DNA of 64,000 nt from NCBI GenBank assembly GCA_905193225.1, contig CAJJNV010000008.1, positions 5,860 to 69,859 of the forward strand. The letters are read 5' to 3'. Below are positions 720 to 14,165 of this stretch, piece after piece. Numbering within the stretch: the first letter of the stretch is position 1; every line of letters starts with the position of its first letter. The notes under the pieces are model-generated. The model saw nothing but the letters and a program-made list of their open reading frames with translations. It did no database searches and was not told where the DNA came from. Source of the stretch: an uncultured Oscillospiraceae bacterium. GTDB lineage: Bacteria > Bacillota > Clostridia > Oscillospirales > Acutalibacteraceae. The translations under genes were made by a program, and so were the position numbers.

Positions 720-974
720 TTATTCCTCCGAAAGCTTTTTAACAATATTCCGTTCAAAAAAATCGTCGAATTTTTCCGGCGTTACTCCGGTAAAGACTTC
801 GTCGTCCACCATTACGGTGACCCCCTCGCGGTTGCATCTGCCGGTGCAAAAGCTCCCCGCCAAAGTAACCTGCTCCGAAAGACCTCTTTCGGCCGTCGCC
901 TTTTGGAAAAGCTCTACCAACTCCTCGGATCCCTTGAGATGACATGAGGAACCGACGCATATCTGAACTATCAT
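720..974 (-). CDS. thioredoxin-like [2Fe-2S] ferredoxin (small NuoE-fold protein)
   Basis: 84 aa with cysteine pattern CVGSSCHLKG...CTGRC, typical of thioredoxin-like 2Fe-2S ferredoxins. Lies immediately upstream of the hydrogenase gene on the same strand. Confidence 0.7.
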   Translation of the reverse strand: MIVQICVGSSCHLKGSEELVELFQKATAERGLSEQVTLAGSFCTGRCNREGVTVMVDDEVFTGVTPEKFDDFFERNIVKKLSEE

Positions 975-993
975 TTATTTCACCCTTACTGAT

Positions 994-1117
994 TTGCTGA
1001 AAGTGTTTGCTGAGTATTTGCTGAAAGTGCCGGCTGAATGCTTATCGAAAACATTCGCCGAAGAATTGTTTGGCATTTTCTGAAGTATTTACCGAAGATT
1101 TGCTGAACAATTGCTGA
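994..1117. repeat. array of at least 5 exact TTGCTGA motifs (plus degenerate copies) in the spacer between the two ferredoxin genes
   Basis: TTGCTGA at ~994, 1007, 1018, 1099 and 1111; degenerate GGCTGAA at ~1032 and TTCTGAA at ~1078. Confidence 0.6.
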
Positions 1118-1189
1118 GCATTCGCCCAAATGCCTGCTTAAATATCACCTGAACACATCCGTGACATTACAGCTTTAATGCGGGCGAGG

Positions 1190-1435
1190 CTATTTATTAA
1201 GCTTTGCCACGATCTTTTTATCAAAGAAATCATCCACAGTCTCGGGACTTACCGAATAAAATCGGTTTTCCACCGTTACGCAGACTCCTTGCTGACATTT
1301 TCCCATACAGAATGTGCCCGCAAGTTCAACGCTGTCCCCTACCTGCTTTTCGGCAACAAGCTCCTGAAGCCGCTCGACAACCTGCCTCGACCCCTTAATA
1401 TGACATGACGAGCCGATACATACCGTGACCTTCAT
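1190..1435 (-). CDS. thioredoxin-like [2Fe-2S] ferredoxin, paralog of 720..974
   Basis: 81 aa with CIGSSCHIKG...CMGKCQQGVC, same fold pattern as the neighbour. Tandem paralog. Confidence 0.7.
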   Translation of the reverse strand: MKVTVCIGSSCHIKGSRQVVERLQELVAEKQVGDSVELAGTFCMGKCQQGVCVTVENRFYSVSPETVDDFFDKKIVAKLNK

Positions 1436-1759
1436 ATATTTTTTCCTCCTTCGGTTTTTGATTTAAATACTGATTTTTCTCACAAAAAATATTAACTGCG
1501 CCCCGCTTTTTAAAAGACAGGCAAGGCGGAGTTCTTTATGCTCGGTGTTGCTTTGTTATTGCTTTGGTATTGCTTTGTTTCGCTCGGTATTTGCCTTGTG
1601 TTTTTGCTTTTGGATATTGTGCTGATGATTTAATTGCGATTGAAATTATTATATTTTTTACGGATGTTTTATTGTGCTTGTTGACAGAAAGCTACTGTTT
1701 AACTTGGCTTTTGTCAATACACCGTAGTAACCGATATAGCACCGCCGCGGCTGCAAGGT

Positions 1760-1903
1760 GTGCTGAGGCAAGTCAGCTCTGCTGACCGGAGGGCGGCCGG
1801 CAGCAAGCGCAAAGCAGCAATCGGAAAATGCGGCGTATTTTTTCTTTAAGGCTGCGGTGTTTTGCGCCCTCCGTTCTCGGCAGGGCCGAGAAGGCCTCAG
1901 CAC
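1760..1903. ncRNA. GC-rich structured repeat element, copy A (reverse orientation relative to B and C); candidate novel ncRNA or structured repeat
   Basis: Outer stem GTGCTGAGGC (1760-1769) pairs with GCCTCAGCAC (1894-1903). Sub-hairpin GTCAGC-tct-GCTGAC. Mid stem CGGAGGGCG (1787-1795) pairs with CGCCCTCCG (1865-1873). Sub-hairpin TTCTCGGC-agg-GCCGAGAA. The 69-nt core contains CTGCGGTG and AATCGGAA, which read CACCGCAG and TTCCGATT on the opposite strand. Confidence 0.6.
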
Positions 1904-1935
1904 GCCGGCGGCCGCTTGCCTATAGCATACATTTA

Positions 1936-2679
1936 TTATATATACTTCTCGACAATGGCGGTATAAAATTTTTTCTGATCCTTTCCCGCCTTGGCCGATT
2001 TCGATGCGGCAATAATGGGAAACCACCGCTCGACATATCCCCTCTCGGTTCCGCTCTTTTCGCATATTCCGTTAAGATATTGCTCGGCCGTTTCGGTCTC
2101 TCCGCCGTAAAGAAAATAGAGGTAGGTTCCGGCGGCGTCGGCTGCTCCGTTGCCCTTGGCGGCGTGAGACCAGTCGAGAATAAAAGGGTCGTTTTTATCG
2201 GAAATAACGATGTTAGACGGGTTAAAATCCCCGTGGCAGATCTTTGTGTGCTTGGGCATATCGTTAAGCCGATCAAGCAGATCGTATCTGACCGTAGCGG
2301 CAAAATCGGTGTCGCAGATGTTGCGGGTCAGTTTATCGCTTAAAAGGGTCAGCTCCGGGCATTTCTTTGAAAGCACATCAAGCTGCAGATTGATGAATTT
2401 ATCGATGTATTCATCCTTTTTTTCGGGATGCTCTGTCATAAGAGCGGCAAGGTTTTTACCCTTAATGTGTTCGTAAACAATGGCCCATTTGCCGTTGATG
2501 ACCGTTACCTCGAGAATTTTCGGAATGTTAAGACCGGTTTCCTCAAGACGCGCCTGATTGAGAGCCTCGCTGAGTACGTCGGATTTTTTATATTGACCGT
2601 TAAAAACCTTAAAACTGCTGTTGCCTTCGCAATAGACCGTTTTGCTGTTTCTAACGGCGATTATCCTATCAAGTTTCAT
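1936..2679 (-). CDS. phosphotransferase-family kinase (aminoglycoside/choline-kinase-like fold)
   Basis: 247 aa with Brenner-type motif HGDFNPSNI and DWS motif. Confidence 0.7.
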   Translation of the reverse strand: MKLDRIIAVRNSKTVYCEGNSSFKVFNGQYKKSDVLSEALNQARLEETGLNIPKILEVTVINGKWAIVYEHIKGKNLAALMTEHPEKKDEYIDKFINLQLDVLSKKCPELTLLSDKLTRNICDTDFAATVRYDLLDRLNDMPKHTKICHGDFNPSNIVISDKNDPFILDWSHAAKGNGAADAAGTYLYFLYGGETETAEQYLNGICEKSGTERGYVERWFPIIAASKSAKAGKDQKKFYTAIVEKYI

Positions 2680-2747
2680 AAAAGCACCTTCGTTCGACTG
2701 ATATAGATTTTACAATTCACATTACGTTGTTATATTGTATTATTAGC

Positions 2748-3374
2748 TTACATTTTCATCGGCTCTATCATACACCTAAGATAGGCGGGGGTCAATACGG
2801 GATTTTCATATTCCACAACCGCATCGGCCGGAGCCGACACACGACAGGGAGAAATACACCACACCGCCCTTATCCCGCTTTTATAAAGCAGATCAAAAGA
2901 TTTTTGAGCATTCTCGGGAGGGCAGCAGACTATTCCGATTTTCACCCCGTTTTTTTCGATATAACCTTTCATTTCCCTTAAGGGCAAAAGCTGTTTTCCG
3001 CTTTCCGAGCGTTTTTTTCCGCTAAAGCATCCGTCGAAAGCGGCGGGTATTTCAAGTCCGCAGTCCTCAAAGCCCTTGAAATCAAGCAGCGACAGGGCAA
3101 AGTTCCCCGATCCGACAATAACGGCACGGGTATTTTTAAGATCGAAGTACCGCTCGAGGCAGCTTAAAAGCTCGCTTGTTTTATAGCCGGTTTTCGGCCG
3201 TCCCTCGCCGCACAGCACCCCTAAATCCTTTCGCACCTGCACCTCGCCCATACAAAGATCCTTGGCGATTTTGGTGGCCGAGATGTTTTGGTCATACTTT
3301 GCTGCACTTTTAAGATATTTGAGATAAACAGGCACCCTCGAAAGGGTCGCCCTGGAAATGGCCTGTTCCTTCAT
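2748..3374 (-). CDS. rex: redox-sensing transcriptional repressor Rex
   Basis: MKEQAISRATLSRVPVYLKYLK... winged-helix N-terminus plus Rossmann GSGNFALSLL. The track ORF extends to 3389; MKEQ at 3374 matches the canonical Rex N-terminus. Confidence 0.85.
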   Translation of the reverse strand: MKEQAISRATLSRVPVYLKYLKSAAKYDQNISATKIAKDLCMGEVQVRKDLGVLCGEGRPKTGYKTSELLSCLERYFDLKNTRAVIVGSGNFALSLLDFKGFEDCGLEIPAAFDGCFSGKKRSESGKQLLPLREMKGYIEKNGVKIGIVCCPPENAQKSFDLLYKSGIRAVWCISPCRVSAPADAVVEYENPVLTPAYLRCMIEPMKM

Positions 3375-3617
3375 AACGGTGTCTCCCATCGTTTTTTAAC
3401 AAAGCCTGTATTACCCGCGTTTTTTTCGCACCTGCGTTTCTACATCGTCACCTTTACCCGCCTGCGCTTTAGACGCCTGCGTTTACCGCAGTGACTGTCT
3501 GTCATATCGGTGCCGTTTTTCGCTCGTTTTTCCGCTTAAGCAAAGTTAGCAGACAAGCCTTGAAAAAGGTGATCTCTTCGGCAAAAAAATCGCAAAAATA
3601 CCGCAGTACAGCCTTGT

Positions 3618-6025: not shown

Positions 6026-8350
6026 ATGAAAAAATTGTTGTCTATTTTTCTTTCGATAGCCGTTGCGGCGGGACTTTTCACCGTTCCTGCGGGCGTCTAT
6101 GCCGAAGAACAAACAACCAATGACTTTGTCGTTATCGACAGTATGGACTATGCCGGAATATGGCAGTCGAGCAGCGATGCTGTCACCAATACAACCGACA
6201 ATATGGAAGGTACCGGCTGCTTAGAGGTAACCGGCGCTGATATCAACCTTTTGCTCAGCAAAAAAATCGACGTTGAAGGCGGAATCAAGGCAAAAAAATA
6301 CCTTGAAATGTGGTTCTACTGCGAGGATGCCTCTGCTCTCACAAGTGACAGTATGGTCGTAATCAACCGAAACGGCTCAGACCTCAAGCTCAAACTCCCG
6401 GTAGAAAAACTTACAAACGGATGGAACAGACTTCATCTTTCCCTCATTCTTGCCATCGAAAAATACGACGGTATTGACGCCATCAAAATCAATCTTGCCA
6501 CCGGCGGAAAGGCTCAGAAATTTATGATGGACGATATTGTTCTTGCTCCCGTGACCAACGTAAAAAACACCGAGGCGCTTGACAAGGCTGTTGCCGATGC
6601 CAAGGCTTACGATGCGAAATATTTAAGCAAAGCTCAGGCAGTCCGTCTTGAAAAGCTTCTCACCCGTGCCGAGAATCCCGTCGCCCAGCGCGATGCCGAC
6701 GCAATCGCCGCCGACATCAACGACATTATACATGTTCCCGCATTCGACGGACAGATCACCACCCACGGCCGCACATATTATAAATGGAACGAAGCTTCGA
6801 GCAAAAACGAGCTTTATATGTCCTATTCTTCCACCGGATTTTCGGTCAGATTCTATGGAACCGAGCTTAAAGCCAAGCTCAGAGGCTCGGCAAATGCTCA
6901 GCCTGCCATCGTCAATATATATGTTGACCGCGACACCACCACATTTGACTATGACCACACCATAACCACCGAAGCCGCCGCAAAGGCCGAGCTTGACAAA
7001 TACAATCAGAACAACCCACACATTCAGCTCACCGGTACCGAAACCGAGTACACACTCGTTTCCGGCCTTACCGAAGGCATCCACACCGTAACCGTGCTCA
7101 AACGCGGCGAAGTAACCTATACCGACCGCGTGATTCTTTCGGACATTTCCACCGACGGGCAGCTTCTCGCTCCCCCCGCAAAATCCACCCGCCGCATTGA
7201 AGTCCTCGGCGACTCCAATATGACCGGTTATGCAAACCTTGCCGGCGGCGGATATTCCTACGCCACCCAGGACGGCACCGTCACCTTTGCCGGATACATT
7301 GCAAACGGCCTCGGCGCCGACTATTCCCTCATCGCCCGCAGCGGTATCACCCTTACCCCCGGCGTTGCAGGAAACTGCTCAGAAGGATTTATGTATAACA
7401 CATATCTCTACACCGACTACTGGACCAACGGCGATGCATCGGGCGGTACCTGGAACGACGCAGGAAGCAACATAAACCAGGAAGATCCCTCCAAATTCAA
7501 TTACGTATCGGAAGATAAGCTTTACGATTTTGCGCAGTCTGACAATGATGTCGTTGTTATCCACATCGGCGACAACGATCACGACGGCCGTAACGGATCC
7601 ACCGGCAGCAATGCCGATTCCTTCATCAGCTATATGAAGAAATTCATCAAGCAGGTGCGCTCCGTAAACCCCAGAGCTGAGATCATTGTATGCTTCTCCA
7701 TAAGCGGATACGAAGCTTGGAGAAACGTTGAGGAAACCGCCGTCAACCAGATCAAGGCCGAAGGCGAAGACCGCATTTGCTTCCTCAGACCCGTTTCGGG
7801 CACATTCGGAAGCTCGGGACATCCCTACAACAAGGTTCATTACGATGCGGCACAGCAGGTCATCGAAAAGATCAAGGAACTGACCGGATGGAAGGCCGCC
7901 GTTCGCGAGGTCTATTCCGATCCCACCGCAGAGGTCAAGATTGTTCCCTCTGAAAACTATGCCGAAATCGGCTCGACCGTAACCTTCAAGATCCCCGAAA
8001 ACGCTGTCCCCGAATCCATAAAAATCACCACCTACGGCAAGGACGTTGAGTTCACCAAAACCGAGGACGGTACCGTCTCCTTCACAATGCCCGACGGCGC
8101 AGTAATGATCCACGCCGACAAGAAGGAAGAAGTCGTCATCAGATACGGTTACATCAACGAGGACGATAATATCGACGCCACCGACGCACTGTGGATTCTC
8201 CAGTCCTTTGTCGGCTTACGTACACTTGACGAAGAAGTAAAACCGGCCGCCGATGTCAATCTCGACGGAGCGATCGATGCTTCCGACGCTCTCTGTGTGC
8301 TTCAGTATTATGTGGGATTGCGCACCGAGCTTCCCGTTTCCAAGAGCTAA
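6026..8350 (+). CDS. secreted CE2-like SGNH carbohydrate esterase with C-terminal dockerin (cellulosomal)
   Basis: Signal peptide MKKLLSIFLSIAVAAGLFTVPAGVYA. N-terminal beta-sandwich, then GDSN block (IEVLGDSNMTGY), GDNDHD block and DxxH-like GHPYNKVH. Dockerin repeats DDNIDATDALWILQ and DVNLDGAIDASDALCVLQ. Upstream TTTACT-17-TGTATAAT promoter and terminator 8405-8447. Confidence 0.8.
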   Translation: MKKLLSIFLSIAVAAGLFTVPAGVYAEEQTTNDFVVIDSMDYAGIWQSSSDAVTNTTDNMEGTGCLEVTGADINLLLSKKIDVEGGIKAKKYLEMWFYCEDASALTSDSMVVINRNGSDLKLKLPVEKLTNGWNRLHLSLILAIEKYDGIDAIKINLATGGKAQKFMMDDIVLAPVTNVKNTEALDKAVADAKAYDAKYLSKAQAVRLEKLLTRAENPVAQRDADAIAADINDIIHVPAFDGQITTHGRTYYKWNEASSKNELYMSYSSTGFSVRFYGTELKAKLRGSANAQPAIVNIYVDRDTTTFDYDHTITTEAAAKAELDKYNQNNPHIQLTGTETEYTLVSGLTEGIHTVTVLKRGEVTYTDRVILSDISTDGQLLAPPAKSTRRIEVLGDSNMTGYANLAGGGYSYATQDGTVTFAGYIANGLGADYSLIARSGITLTPGVAGNCSEGFMYNTYLYTDYWTNGDASGGTWNDAGSNINQEDPSKFNYVSEDKLYDFAQSDNDVVVIHIGDNDHDGRNGSTGSNADSFISYMKKFIKQVRSVNPRAEIIVCFSISGYEAWRNVEETAVNQIKAEGEDRICFLRPVSGTFGSSGHPYNKVHYDAAQQVIEKIKELTGWKAAVREVYSDPTAEVKIVPSENYAEIGSTVTFKIPENAVPESIKITTYGKDVEFTKTEDGTVSFTMPDGAVMIHADKKEEVVIRYGYINEDDNIDATDALWILQSFVGLRTLDEEVKPAADVNLDGAIDASDALCVLQYYVGLRTELPVSKS

Positions 8351-8709
8351 AGCGTCAGATTAAATTTCTCTAATACAGAAATTTTTTCACCACTTTAAAA
8401 TTATGCCCTTTCTCTTAAGGCTTTCTTTCGAGAAGGGGCATTTTTTCTTTTGTCATTCTTTTCAACACACAATGCTAAATTTGTGCACAGCCGCGCTATG
8501 CTTTCTTTTTGAAAAACTTTTGACATATAAAATATTTTTCTTTGCAATATTATAAAAATTCTTTACAAATTAAACAAATTGTATTATAATGTTATGTGTT
8601 GTGTTGCGTCGGATAGGGATAAATTACCTTATAGAGTGTTATTTATCCGATCAATCCGATTTATTCCTATCCGGTGCAATACCTACGGATGATAAAAAGG
8701 AGAAGTATA

Positions 8710-10323
8710 ATGAAAAAGCTGATTTCAATTTTAACCGCATTTTCTCTGGTTATCTCTCTTTTTGTTTTTGGCACCGGCGCTTCCGCCGACACCACAAACA
8801 AAAGCTACCTCTTGATGAGCAATTCCTCCGACCGAAACTATGTTGCAAAAAAGGGCCGCAGCTATTACAATGATACCTCCCTGCGCCTTACCTGGTCGGC
8901 TGCGGGATACTCGGTTAGATTTTACGGCACCGAGCTTAAAACAACGATGACCGCTGATGGTACAAGCGGCACCCTTAACGTATACGTTGACAAAAATAAA
9001 AACCAGTATTATTTCAATACCGAAGCCTCGAGCTATTCTGCCGCCAGGGACGAGTATAACGCCAACTGCCCCCACATTTCCCTTTCAGACGGCAAGCGCA
9101 CATATACCGTCGTATCCGGCCTTGCAAAAGGATATCATACCGTTACACTCTTAAAGCGCGCCGAGCTTGACCGTTCGTCCAACATCTCGGTAAACGACAT
9201 TATAACCGACGGTTATTTCTGCGATCCCCCTGCAAAATCCTCCCGCAAAATCGAAATTGTCGGCGACTCCAACGCCACCGGATTCGGCAATATGGCAATG
9301 TCGGGCGAAAGCGGCGATTACAACTGGTATGAGCAGGATGCCACCCTGTCCTTTGGTGCATACTGCGCCGAGGAACTTGCCGCCGATTACTCCATCTGCG
9401 CCCACAGCGGTGCGACCGTAACTCCCGGTCTTGCCGAAGGGACATTACTCGACAAATATCTGCAAACCGACGCTTACAACGGCGTTACATCGGAATATGA
9501 TTTTGAAGGCGGCTCGGATGTTGTCATAATCCACCTGGGTGACAACGACCATGACGCGACCGAAGCCAAAGGCACAAGCAATTATGTTAAATATCTCGCC
9601 CAAATGATAAATCAGGTCAGAAGCAAAAACCCGAACGCCAAGATAATTTGTGTGCTCTCTCTTGCAGGCTATTCCGACTGGCATCCCTATGTTCAGCAGG
9701 CCATTGATGCCTCGGGCGACACCAACACTTATAAATATCTCAACGGCAATTCAAACAACGGCGCTCCCGCCGGCCATGCGCTTCAAAAATATCACAAAAT
9801 TCTCGGTCTCAACCTTGCGGCATACATCCGCACCCTTATGGGCTGGAATGGTAAGGTATACGAAACTGTGGCCGACACCGCCAATTCAAATATAAGCGTC
9901 AACCTTCCACAAAGTTTCTATAAGGCGGGCGACACCGTAACCTTCACCCCATCGGTAACCGGCGGACAGGTTGGCAGCGCAACCGTCAAAACCATCGGTA
10001 CCACCTATGGCACAAATGTTGCGGTGGCAAAATCGGGCAGCAGCTTTTCATTTACAATGCCTTCCGACCGCGTGCTCGTCTCGGTTGAAGCAAGCAAACA
10101 GCTGCTTGCGGGAGACATTAATTTAAGCGGAAAATCCAATGCGGTCGATGCACTTATGGCCCTTAAATATGCAACAAAATCGCTGACCCTTTCATCCGAG
10201 CAGACCGCAGCCGGCGATGTAAACGGAGACGGCAAGCTTACCACCGTAGACGCGCTTATAATACTTCAGTATTCGGTCAAGAAAATGGTTTCATATCCCG
10301 TCGGCGAGTATGTTTATTTCTGA
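8710..10323 (+). CDS. secreted CE2-like SGNH carbohydrate esterase with C-terminal dockerin, paralog of 6026..8350
   Basis: MKKLISILTAFSLVISLFVFGTGASA signal peptide. IEIVGDSNATGFG, IHLGDNDHD, GHALQKYHK blocks. Dockerin DINLSGKSNAVDALMALK and DVNGDGKLTTVDALIILQ. AAAGGAG RBS at 8710 (track ORF starts 8674). Terminator ~10411-10450. Confidence 0.8.
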   Translation: MKKLISILTAFSLVISLFVFGTGASADTTNKSYLLMSNSSDRNYVAKKGRSYYNDTSLRLTWSAAGYSVRFYGTELKTTMTADGTSGTLNVYVDKNKNQYYFNTEASSYSAARDEYNANCPHISLSDGKRTYTVVSGLAKGYHTVTLLKRAELDRSSNISVNDIITDGYFCDPPAKSSRKIEIVGDSNATGFGNMAMSGESGDYNWYEQDATLSFGAYCAEELAADYSICAHSGATVTPGLAEGTLLDKYLQTDAYNGVTSEYDFEGGSDVVIIHLGDNDHDATEAKGTSNYVKYLAQMINQVRSKNPNAKIICVLSLAGYSDWHPYVQQAIDASGDTNTYKYLNGNSNNGAPAGHALQKYHKILGLNLAAYIRTLMGWNGKVYETVADTANSNISVNLPQSFYKAGDTVTFTPSVTGGQVGSATVKTIGTTYGTNVAVAKSGSSFSFTMPSDRVLVSVEASKQLLAGDINLSGKSNAVDALMALKYATKSLTLSSEQTAAGDVNGDGKLTTVDALIILQYSVKKMVSYPVGEYVYF

Positions 10324-10607
10324 TGCCGACACAGAAAATGCATCGATTGATTGACCGGCTGATTGATTAACCTACTGCCCTTTCAACAAACGATTTATTT
10401 CATTAAATTCAACACCTCTGACAGCGCAAAGCTTTCAGGGGTGTTTTTTGTTGGGCCATTGCCGAGGTGCCATGGTTGTTTGTTTGTATCTTCTGACCTG
10501 CGGCACCTTGCTGCTGTTTTGCGGTGCTTTTTATGCTTCTTTTTTATGCCGGCGTTTTTTGATGCCGTTTCTATACTGCGTGATTGAAAGCTGTGATTTT
10601 GACCTAC

Positions 10608-10748
10608 CGCTGAGGCAGCCTCGGCGCAGCCGAGACCGGAGGGTACGGCATCCCGCAGTCTTACCTACAAACAAGGCTGCACTTAAAAAACTTATATGCT
10701 TTTATCCGAGAGCCTCCCTCCGATCAGCTTGCGCTGATTGCCTCAGCG
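10608..10748. ncRNA. GC-rich structured repeat element, copy B
   Basis: Outer stem CGCTGAGGCA (10608-10617) pairs with TGCCTCAGCG (10739-10748). Sub-hairpin CTCGGC-gca-GCCGAG. Mid stem CGGAGGG pairs with CCCTCCG. Sub-hairpin ATCAGC-ttgc-GCTGAT. Core contains CCCGCAG and TTATCCGAG. Confidence 0.6.
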
Positions 10749-10880
10749 TCCCGCAGCCGTGCACATTAGGTCAGCTGACAACCCTTCGCAGCCTTCTGCC
10801 GCACGCAAATACACAAAACCCTGCCTAATGAAAAGGCCTTAGCATCTGCGCCAAGCCTTTAAGACTTTTATTTAATCTAA

Positions 10881-10930
10881 AAACGCACAAACAGCGTGCA
10901 TCCCATTTTGCGAGATGCACGCCGTTTTTA
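10881..10930. terminator. strong bidirectional rho-independent terminator, with no coding gene immediately upstream
   Basis: AAAAACG...GCGTGCATC-ccattttgcga-GATGCACGC-CGTTTTT. Confidence 0.55.
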
Positions 10931-11078: not shown

Positions 11079-11576
11079 ATGGGAAAAAGACTTAAACGGC
11101 GGATCGCCGTTATTTTCATCAGCGCCGGGGTGGCTGTGGCGGTCATTCTGCTGCTGGACGGACTTCTCTCGACTACGGCAAAACGGGTGTCGGCAGGTGC
11201 CGAACAGCACATCATCACAAAAGCGGTAGATTTTTTAAAGGGCTACGGTTACGAGTGCGGCAGAGAGCCTGCCGAGGTTTTTGATTATGCTGTTCCGACC
11301 GAGTTCGACAGTGTTATGACAATTTACAACGACCTGCAGAAAAGCCAGGGCTTTGATCTTGAAAAATACAAGGGAAAGACGGTCAAGCGGTTTTCGTTTA
11401 GAATAGAAAACTATCCCGATGTTGCCGAGGATGTTTTTGCCGACATTTTATTTTCCGACGGAGAGATAATCGGCGGAGATATATGCACAAGATCGCTTGA
11501 CGGATTTATGGAGGGCTTTGACCGCACAAAAGGACAAAGCGGTATTATGAAAAAGGCCATGTCGCAGGGAGCATAA
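11079..11576 (+). CDS. hypothetical membrane-anchored protein (N-terminal TM helix)
   Basis: 165 aa. RBS GGTGGAGAT before the ATG. TM segment IAVIFISAGVAVAVILLL. Confidence 0.5.
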   Translation: MGKRLKRRIAVIFISAGVAVAVILLLDGLLSTTAKRVSAGAEQHIITKAVDFLKGYGYECGREPAEVFDYAVPTEFDSVMTIYNDLQKSQGFDLEKYKGKTVKRFSFRIENYPDVAEDVFADILFSDGEIIGGDICTRSLDGFMEGFDRTKGQSGIMKKAMSQGA

Positions 11577-13515: not shown

Positions 13516-13751
13516 AAAAATTCTCCGAAAAAAGATATATTGATAGCACGAGGATTAAAACGGATTTGCCGGTCGGTTAATCTGCTCTGCGGTATCGTTT
13601 CATTTCCCATATTAGTTAGCTTAACGCACCGCGTTACCGTTTATAATTGCAGTTTCGTTACGACCGCTTGCGCCTGCTCTTCGCCGAAATATTGTGTCAG
13701 GCAGTCGGACGCGGCTTTGCGCTATACAAAGCCTTGCGGATATGTAACGGC

Positions 13752-13898
13752 CGGGCGCCGAGACTTTCCCGGCCTTGCCGGGAACGGGAGGAGCAACACA
13801 CCGCAGTTTTCGGGAAAACGACACGCTATATTATCCGATTACCGCTTCGCATCAGCAGCCTTTCCTCCCGGTCAGCTGACGCTGACAGTCTCGGCACC
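13752..13898. ncRNA. GC-rich structured repeat element, copy C
   Basis: Outer stem GGGCGCCGAGACT pairs with AGTCTCGGCACCC (one mismatch). Sub-hairpin TTCCCGGC-ctt-GCCGGGAA. Mid stem CGGGAGG pairs with CCTCCCG. Sub-hairpin GTCAGC-tgac-GCTGAC. Core contains CACACCGCAG, TTATCCGATT and GCTTCGCATCAGCAGCC, shared with copy A in reverse complement. Confidence 0.6.
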
Positions 13899-14018
13899 CT
13901 TGCTTTAACGAAAGCCATAAAGCGCACATCTGCCTTCGGCCTGATAAGCATCACACCACACGTCCGATTGCGCACCTCCCGAGCCAAAAAAGCATTGCAA
14001 AAGTACAAAAGTATTTTA

Positions 14019-14165
14019 TCACAATCTATCGGCTTTGTAAACATCAAAAAACCATTCACCGCCTATCCGTCCCGCAGCAGCCCCGCTGTAAACCGCAGCA
14101 AAGGCCACACCTCCAGCCGCAATAAACGCCGCGCCGACAATCGCCGCACATAACCCGGCTTTCAT
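14019..14165 (-). CDS. possible small hydrophobic peptide (48 aa, Gly/Ala-rich TM helix)
   Basis: Hand translation: MKAGLCAAIVGAAFIAAGGVAFAAVYSGAAAGRIGGEWFFDVYKADRL. Preceded by GGAAGGTG RBS. Below the length cutoff of the ORF track. Confidence 0.25.
   Translation of the reverse strand: MKAGLCAAIVGAAFIAAGGVAFAAVYSGAAAGRIGGEWFFDVYKADRL

Follow-up and report, generated by a model that had tools for sequence, protein, structure and literature searches.

What kind of element is the long palindrome that lies in the non-coding gap of 755 nucleotides (nt) between the end of the second CE2/dockerin esterase gene (8674-10323) and the start of a DUF4830 gene (11079-11576) in an uncultured Oscillospiraceae bacterium? 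The stretch analysed here, hereafter the window, comprises 64,000 nt of contig CAJJNV010000008.1 (assembly GCA_905193225.1), and the palindrome, hereafter copy B, had been described in an earlier note on this DNA as one copy of a structured element shared with two others, A and C. On balance we lean towards reading copy B as a structured interspersed repeat that is new but of the same general kind as bcr1, ERIC and BOX. Its parts, in window coordinates and read in the sense direction of the element, are the following.

10600-10773, minus strand: copy B, the whole palindromic unit; the covariance model R1 matches it at 10586-10762 (148 bits, E = 5e-45).
10600-10606 with 10767-10773: P0, the outermost stem, TGACCTA pairing with TAGGTCA, which lengthens the palindrome.
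10739-10748, minus strand: 5′ strand of P1 (sense), CGCUGAGGCA, pairing with 10608-10617.
10608-10617, minus strand: 3′ strand of P1 (sense), as read from the sequence.
10723-10738, minus strand: P2 hairpin, AUCAGC-GCAA-GCUGAU, with a GNRA loop on the sense strand.
10637-10722, minus strand: P3, CGGAGGG with CCCUCCG, and the variable interior that it encloses.
10619-10635, minus strand: P4 hairpin, in the sense direction (G)UCUCGGC-UGC-GCCGAG(GC).
10749-10790, minus strand: degenerate 5′ box directly upstream of P1 (sense), GUUGUCAGCUGACCUAAUGUGCACGGCUGCGGGA.

The stems that the earlier note had drawn on the plus strand are present in the sequence. The outer stem pairs CGCTGAGGCA (10608-10617) with TGCCTCAGCG (10739-10748), the mid stem pairs CGGAGGG (10637-10643) with CCCTCCG (10716-10722), the hairpins CTCGGC-gca-GCCGAG and ATCAGC-ttgc-GCTGAT stand at 10620-10634 and 10723-10738, the core carries CCGCAG and TTATCCGA in the plus-strand reading, and the GTCAGCTGAC palindrome occupies 10770-10779. 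P1 is a perfect stem of 10 bp to which P0 adds 7 bp, and copies of the type found at the related locus L012 reach about 20 bp. P2 is homologous to 1782-1796 in A and to 13872-13885 in C, the interior of P3 contains the conserved sense-strand motifs UCGGAUAA and CUGCGG, P4 needs a minus-strand U·G pair to reach eight pairs, and the 5′ box includes a recurring GCACGGCUGCGG motif in addition to the GTCAGCTGAC palindrome. There is no open reading frame (ORF) inside the element. Folding of the copy B region beats 200 of 200 shuffles on each strand, and the minus-strand fold has an energy of -75.4 kcal/mol (z = -3.8).

Copy B is in the inverted orientation of A, and neither its supposed plus-strand orientation nor the idea that it carries different hairpins at the positions of A's could be upheld. 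A(+) 1750-1915 aligns over its full length with the reverse complement of B, at a mean column identity of 77%, whereas an alignment of the two in the same orientation falls apart and was given up for the inverted one; the covariance model likewise scores 148 bits on the minus strand of B versus 29 bits on the plus strand. The first plus-strand hairpin of B (CTCGGC..GCCGAG) is A's second (TCTCGGCAGGGCCGAGA), and its second (ATCAGC..GCTGAT) is A's first (GTCAGC..GCTGAC). The interior motifs line up only in the inverted orientation, where the sense CTGCGG and TCGGAWAA correspond to the antisense CCGCAG and TTATCCGA. Since B is inverted, the "different hairpins" are A's own two hairpins viewed from the opposite strand.

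The covariance model bears out that A, B and C represent a single structured element and have a multi-stem architecture in common, and the similarity goes beyond generic GC-rich palindromes, since the non-palindromic interior motifs CTGCGG and TCGGAWAA also align. The spaced outer stem CTGAGGC-N100-130-GCCTCAG and the spaced mid stem CGGAGGG-N50-80-CCCTCCG each occur twice in the window, in A and B, versus about zero expected. A search with a profile of A and B (nhmmer) finds the third copy, C, at E = 5e-14, and the covariance model recovers exactly three copies in the 64 kb, the other two being:

1739-1925, plus strand: copy A, 173 bits, flanked by an APH-like kinase gene (1936-2679) and a 2Fe-2S thioredoxin-like gene (1190-1435), both on the minus strand.
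13733-13917, minus strand: copy C, 155 bits, about 220 nt before rimM and preceded by a predicted sigma-70-type promoter (14041->14013).

The three copies are similar over about 150-160 nt only, at 60-72% identity, and their flanks beyond this have nothing significant in common. TG-rich plus-strand tracts lie beside A (1451-1700) and B (10450-10555); the orientation of these TG/AC-rich tracts relative to the core is inconsistent, and they are hypervariable when the window is compared with a strain 98% identical to it.

Thirteen copies, of which 10 are clearly distinct, entered the analysis of the fold; their sources are the window and related gut Oscillospirales, likewise uncultured. Joint folding of the copies by RNAalifold, a check that the earlier note had called for, and direct counting of pairs support a common four-way junction of 33 pairs, in which P1 is the closing stem (10 pairs), P2 (6 pairs) carries mostly a GCAA loop, P3 (9 pairs) surrounds a variable interior of about 70 nt, and P4 contributes 8 pairs. 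Standard pairs fill 98.6% of 427 cells. Both sides have changed in 13 of the 33 pairs, and in P1 alone 7 of 10 pairs are compensatory, as in GCUGAGGC/GCCUCAGC versus GCCGAGAC/GUCUCGGC; other such exchanges are CGGAGGG/CCCUCCG versus CGGGAGG/CCUCCCG and UCUCGGC/GCCGAGA versus UCCCGGC/GCCGGGA. The observed pairing was reached by none of 500 shuffles, and slid controls were 38-45% paired. Among the non-Watson-Crick cells, 14 are G·U versus 2 A·C, and copy C in a strain 98% identical to the window differs by four substitutions, three of which change a Watson-Crick pair to G·U on the sense strand. The excess of G·U over A·C, together with these substitutions, means that the fold is selected on one strand, which is the plus strand in A and the minus strand in B as well as in C. 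The stems are near-invariant in sequence and the interior is variable except for CTGCGG; conservation of stems over interior is the reverse of what is usual in ribozymes and riboswitches and is typical of protein-recognised hairpins or terminal repeats. An interior helix of GCAGC with GCUGC was considered and rejected as it is broken in two of the related copies (L023 and L025), and no conserved interior structure was established among the 13.

Relatives of the element were sought by pattern scans of genome contigs and metagenome contigs. The genome-contig scan required a first gap of 60-90 nt, versus 57-58 nt in the window copies, and so could not match the window's own species; it returned three true loci in addition to chance matches in Streptomyces coding DNA. 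The metagenome scan returned about 10 true matches in total, and a pattern scan of the IMG/VR viral contigs found no copy of this family (hereafter family 1). Homologues lie in two Hadza gut metagenome-assembled genomes labelled "uncultured Eubacteriales" (L001 and L012 on one contig, and L011) and in metagenomes at L016, L022, L023, L025, L028 (one full copy, L028a, and one 5′-truncated), L032 (two copies) and L035 (truncated). L022 and L032 represent the strain about 98% identical to the window, with A, B and C at the same places and in the same orientations. The window RimM is 57-63% identical to homologues of Candidatus Howiella and Acutalibacteraceae, and the family is dispersed among a narrow group of uncultured gut Oscillospirales near these two. 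Its core measures about 150-190 bp, or about 235 bp with the flanking boxes, and is GC-rich, non-coding and intergenic. An orthologous copy stands 1-3 kb from dnaA/dnaN in four assemblies (L001, L011, L016 and L025, with gyrA also nearby in the last) and therefore near the likely replication origin; L025 appears full of frameshifts. A literature search for a named repeat in Oscillospiraceae or Faecalibacterium gave nothing specific. At gathering thresholds the 4227 models of Rfam 15 had no match in the window or in 10 related loci, and when B, A and the L012 copy were searched at E <= 10 the sole match overlapping the element was IRES_Bip at the start of A (8.6 bits versus a gathering threshold of 40, E = 2.4), which is a marginal chance match.

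Comparison with other genomes shows that the element is polymorphic in its presence at the orthologous sites of A and C. Three relatives whose kinase is 82%, 74% and 72% identical (L043, L044 and L045) keep the gene order around A and have no element, and their gap between the kinase and 2Fe-2S genes measures 266, 93 and 89 nt, respectively, versus 500 nt in the window. In the window species the antisense copy A occupies the space that separates the first 2Fe-2S gene from the kinase gene, and it widens this gap from about 90 to 500 nt. No copy lies near rimM in relatives whose RimM is 92% (L037), 75% (L039) and 65% (L041) identical, all of which have the rimM-trmD-HPr genes; in L039 rimM has the same upstream neighbour as in the window, directly next to it, and C is absent, and both L037 and L039 also carry the DUF4830 gene with no copy nearby. 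The species in this comparison, with marker proteins 65-92% identical, are too diverged for exact boundaries to be read.

These observations are what incline us towards an interspersed repeat. Its anatomy is that of a terminal inverted repeat, P0/P1, around the conserved small hairpins P2 and P4 and a P3 with variable interior; copies lie in either orientation relative to neighbouring genes, and no window copy has an associated protein gene. One may envisage a module that spreads or recombines as a non-autonomous element by means of a mobilising or recombining enzyme encoded elsewhere, the inverted repeat and hairpins being recognised by that machinery or by an RNA-binding factor. The selected form would be a folded single strand, either RNA when the element is transcribed or transiently single-stranded DNA, and sequences containing CTGCGG could serve as preferred junction or target. 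With terminal inverted repeats around a short core, no transposase gene and presence/absence polymorphism, the element fits the class of miniature inverted-repeat transposable elements only in part.

The best-matching described example is bcr1, with ERIC and BOX as broader analogues in their modularity and inserted-block variants. As described in PMC3184786, bcr1 of the Bacillus cereus group is a non-coding, intergenic repeat of about 155 bp whose distribution is not conserved between related genomes; it is transcribed, and its cruciform-like RNA structure with independent stem-loops is kept by compensatory changes. The same account, summarising Okstad 2004 and Klevan 2007, gives it flanking direct repeats of 5 bp and no transposase (PMC3184786). 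The window element resembles bcr1 in its length, intergenic position and patchy distribution, in having no transposase, and in a cruciform-like structure maintained by compensatory changes (13 of 33 pairs, 0 of 500 shuffles). Unlike bcr1, for which 5-bp direct repeats and transcription are documented, the window element showed no consistent target duplication; the two share no sequence similarity, the host clade here is the Oscillospirales, and the window element apparently has fewer, more diverged copies and a four-way junction of which one arm is long and variable. ERIC, BOX, RUP and Correia-type repeats are likewise imperfect intergenic palindromes of 100-200 bp, found in either orientation, with inserted-block or modular variants, a stable RNA fold when co-transcribed, and presence or absence between relatives (PMC3184786). 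They differ in that they usually number tens to hundreds of copies and fold into a single long hairpin, not into a four-way junction; for several of them, target duplications are defined or the insertion sequences that mobilise them are known.

Some copies are decayed, nested or interrupted. L028 contains a 5′-truncated, decayed copy at 6733-6914. L012 and L023 come from what is effectively one species (their E2 protein is 99% identical) and share the same core, around which three blocks of about 165, 39 and 250 bp differ; the extra blocks belong to a second repeat family, family 2. The full family 2 copy at L037:12866-13112 has a different P1 of 28 bp and a different P3 (GGAGGGTAGTAG with CTTACTACCCCTC) and retains P2 with its GCAA loop, the P4 hairpin and the four-way fold of family 1 (z = -7.6). 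Its P4 reads TCTCGGCagaGCCGAG and its long P1 ends in ...CCAGCTCCCCTGACAAGGGGCGCCACGG; P1 of family 1 contains GCACTGAGG, and the ends of family 2 are CTGAGGGGTAGTAAG. In L012 the family 1 core lies inside a family 2 element, at an interior TGCTGCGGG motif, and in L023 the core is flanked on both sides by GCTGCGGGTG. L037 has tandem arrays of solo 3′ halves of family 2, and such halves were also met in two viral contigs of IMG/VR (L046:1987-2060 and L047:5250-5322); further family 2 sites are L037:12600-13300, L012:1960-2120 and 2330-2600, and the flanks of the L016 and L028 copies. GCACGGCTGCGG is a candidate site type for the block indels. The octamer GGCTGCGG occurs at 11 window sites (for example 1850, 10751, 8898 and 22484) versus 2.4 expected from dinucleotide shuffles; most of these lie in coding regions, and codon usage may therefore explain the excess. 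The octamer also marks repeat-module junctions.

The core at L035:843-1055, orthologous to the L012 and L023 copies, is cut inside P4, and the foreign DNA past the cut includes an ORF (36-824) whose product, with Recombinase, Zn_ribbon_recom and DUF4368 domains, is the C-terminal portion of a large serine recombinase. This copy is the integration point of a serine-recombinase element, which suggests that the repeats can be landing sites for mobile DNA; the palindromic P4 may be the attachment site.

Several observations weigh against an interspersed repeat. The gene junction at B is rearranged in L037, L039 and L041, so that the empty-site comparison covers A and C. Between the window and the 98%-identical strain the cores differ by 0.6-2.2%, similar to the 0.9-1.3% of coding DNA, and outside the cores the gaps around A and B differ by 30% and 16%, respectively, mostly through indels and changes in repeat units. 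A copy is conserved between species at two loci, the dnaA-proximal one (L001, L011, L016 and L025) and one near E2/E3 (L012 and L023); given these two loci and the slowly evolving cores, a functional RNA gene would fit equally well. No clean target-site duplication came to light. As candidate flanking direct repeats A has TATAGCA, C has GGCTTT or CGTTA..GCAAGG and L023 has GCTGCGGGTG, with none in B; such repeats are 6-12 bp or longer, and since their length is inconsistent and they are partly homologous between copies, they look like parts of the element. No gene for a mobilising enzyme was seen among the 30 window ORFs. Copy number appears low, with three copies in 64 kb and the roughly ten true metagenome matches, and at 60-72% identity the copies are old, which is not the picture that a recent burst of miniature transposons would give. 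Finally, the strand-specific G·U bias fits RNA most naturally. For these reasons, namely conservation between strains, the two kept loci, few and old copies and the G·U bias, a multicopy functional RNA stays the main rival.

According to this rival, which we regard as possible although clearly not the expected outcome, A, B and C are independently transcribed genes of a new four-way-junction RNA of about 150-200 nt, which would act in trans or bind protein through its hairpins and the repeated single-stranded GCACGGCUGCGG motifs and would gain new copies by duplication. The strand-specific covariation with its G·U bias, the GNRA loop in P2, the orthologous copies retained at two loci across species, and cores conserved like coding DNA amid hypervariable intergenic flanks are all as expected of such genes. 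A and B are antisense to their neighbours, and any sense transcript would therefore need a promoter of its own; the absence of an Rfam match means that the RNA family would be new. A conserved box (..CACCGCAATGACCGATATGGCACGGCTGCGG) abuts P1 on its 5′ side in most copies. It is degenerate in B, where it was aligned with that of A, L001, L011, L012, L016, L025 and L028a.

The box holds no acceptable sigma-70 -10 or -35 element: its best -10-like hexamers, TATGGC and TATAGC, are without the final T, and the -35 is not conserved between paralogues. Scans around the copies found no canonical sigma-70 promoter directly preceding A, B or C; this verdict covers sigma-70-type signals, and promoters of another type may be present. 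Readings of the box as a sigma-D/FliA promoter (CCGATAT, which lies about 3 nt too close to any TAAA-like -35) and as a sigma-54 promoter (TGGCACG-N4-..GC, of which only the -24 half matches) were partial fits and were set aside. Nor did terminator scans around the copies find an intrinsic terminator after A, B or C. In most other loci a terminator precedes the element but belongs to the upstream gene. Near B, the earlier note had pointed to a strong T-run hairpin as the possible 3′ end of a transcript containing the element:

10889-10927: orphan 17-pair hairpin flanked on either side by T-runs, resembling a bidirectional terminator, about 120 nt 5′ of B in the sense direction.

The hairpin exists, but its placement 3′ of copy B does not stand: on the sense strand of B it lies about 120 nt upstream, and the proposal that 10881-10930 ends a plus-strand transcript with the element in its functional orientation is not borne out. 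Since A and C do not share the hairpin, it probably does not belong to the repeat. A second T-run hairpin lies on the minus strand at 10838-10855, between B and the DUF4830 gene, and no annotated gene end on either strand is found at either hairpin.

The scans around A, B and C thus gave neither an own promoter nor a defined 3′ end of the kind that marks a small RNA gene. Further evidence opposed to the small-RNA explanation is that stems are better conserved than interior and junctions, the opposite of most functional RNAs, that close relatives have no copy at the compared positions, and that truncated and nested copies exist. The multicopy small RNAs LhrC of Listeria and Qrr of Vibrio have clear promoters, intrinsic terminators and conserved single-stranded seeds. 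The window element resembles them in that a genome holds several diverged paralogues, some within about 12 kb, each a compact candidate for a structured RNA; it differs in that the window copies are without promoter or terminator signals and that the stems are the best-conserved parts. The more far-reaching proposition that these elements are genes for an RNA class not described before in uncultured gut Oscillospirales, about 150-200 nt long and built around a four-way junction, with family 2 as its sister class, made from non-canonical promoters or by processing and acting through the GCACGGCUGCGG motifs, seems to us rather unlikely. Its roles could be, for example, those of a protein sponge, or of a guide or template for a recombination system, which would explain the nesting and the block indels at CTGCGG.

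An improbable explanation is that the element is a signal in single-stranded DNA recognised on one strand during replication, either the ends of a non-autonomous HUH/Y1 element (IS200/IS605-type PATE or REPIN-like) or a site resembling a single-strand origin. The wobble strand bias would also fit hairpins of single-stranded DNA, the hairpin sequences are conserved, promoter and terminator are absent, and CTGCGG recurs at junctions as well as in the interior (the GCTGCGGGTG flanks of L023 and the nesting at TGCTGCGGG in L012). The ends of the element, however, pair with each other through P0/P1, as is the rule for cut-and-paste miniature elements but not for IS200/IS605. Moreover, there is no Y1 transposase or RAYT gene in the window or the flanks examined, the copies are few, and neither A nor C has the proposed target motif at its flanks. 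A scan of 30 window ORFs gave no transposase, reverse transcriptase or recombinase. REP and REPIN sequences, as defined in PMC3733652, are palindromes of 20-40 bp or doublets of these, with a GTAG or CGTC head, high copy number and a RAYT gene. Measured against that definition, the window element is a multi-branch unit of 150-190 nt without a GTAG or CGTC head, present in three copies per 64 kb and with no Y1 transposase in the window.

It is very doubtful that the element is an inverton, with the P1 inverted repeats as crossover sites of an invertase that produced the opposite orientations of A and B. Inverted repeats of 10-20 bp do flank about 125 bp, both orientations occur among copies, and promoter-like TTGACA/TGTCAA hexamers are found in the 5′ flank of some; but each of A, B and C is oriented in the 98%-identical strain (L022/L032) as it is in the window, covarying P2-P4 hairpins with a G·U strand bias would be unexpected, and there is no invertase gene nearby.

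The last proposal is that the copies are cis-regulatory leaders (riboswitch, attenuator or protein-binding), serving the esterase or DUF4830 gene in the case of B and rimM in the case of C, which we consider hardly credible. B(-) lies between two plus-strand genes and is antisense to both; A(+) is antisense to both its neighbours within a conserved minus-strand cluster (720-3389) that encodes a Rex-like repressor, an APH/RIO-like kinase, two 2Fe-2S thioredoxin-like proteins, a hydrogenase-like protein and a SpoIIE phosphatase. Orientation effectively refutes the proposal for both, and copy B is not a switch for the CE2 esterase or DUF4830 gene. L028a is also antisense to both neighbours, as are about half of the independent loci. 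C(-) is the copy that gives the proposal its appeal, being sense-oriented between rimM and a good predicted promoter (14041->14013, 10/12 matches with an upstream TG) that plausibly serves rimM and lies about 95 nt upstream of C. Against this, relatives at 65-92% RimM identity have rimM-trmD-HPr without the element, no expression platform is visible, and Rfam gave no match. The genes at other loci are unrelated (mannitol dehydrogenase and MatE near dnaA; an HtrA-like protease and DeoR-E2-E3; DUF815 and ilvD), so that the copies do not hold a consistent position and orientation before related genes as leaders do. Upstream of copy C, on the minus strand at 14019-14165, there is a possible ORF of 48 codons for a small hydrophobic peptide (MKAGLCAAIVGAAFIAAGGVAFAAVYSG...), which is preceded by a GGAAGG-type ribosome-binding site and whose 3′ end overlaps the predicted rimM promoter. 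A group II intron remnant, retron, integron attC site, tRNA-like element and single-strand origin were also considered and set aside, none having an Rfam signal or an associated gene.

If the interspersed-repeat reading of copy B is right, this would be an ordinary kind of object in poorly studied fibre-degrading gut Clostridia. The repeat would be useful as a strain marker, would explain hypervariable intergenic regions and spurious ORFs, and would be a warning against labelling such folds riboswitches. If, instead, the sense strand exists as a stable RNA, the covariation on one strand, the second family with the same fold and the CTGCGG junctions would point to an undescribed class of RNA or to an RNA- or single-stranded-DNA-guided mechanism of mobility.

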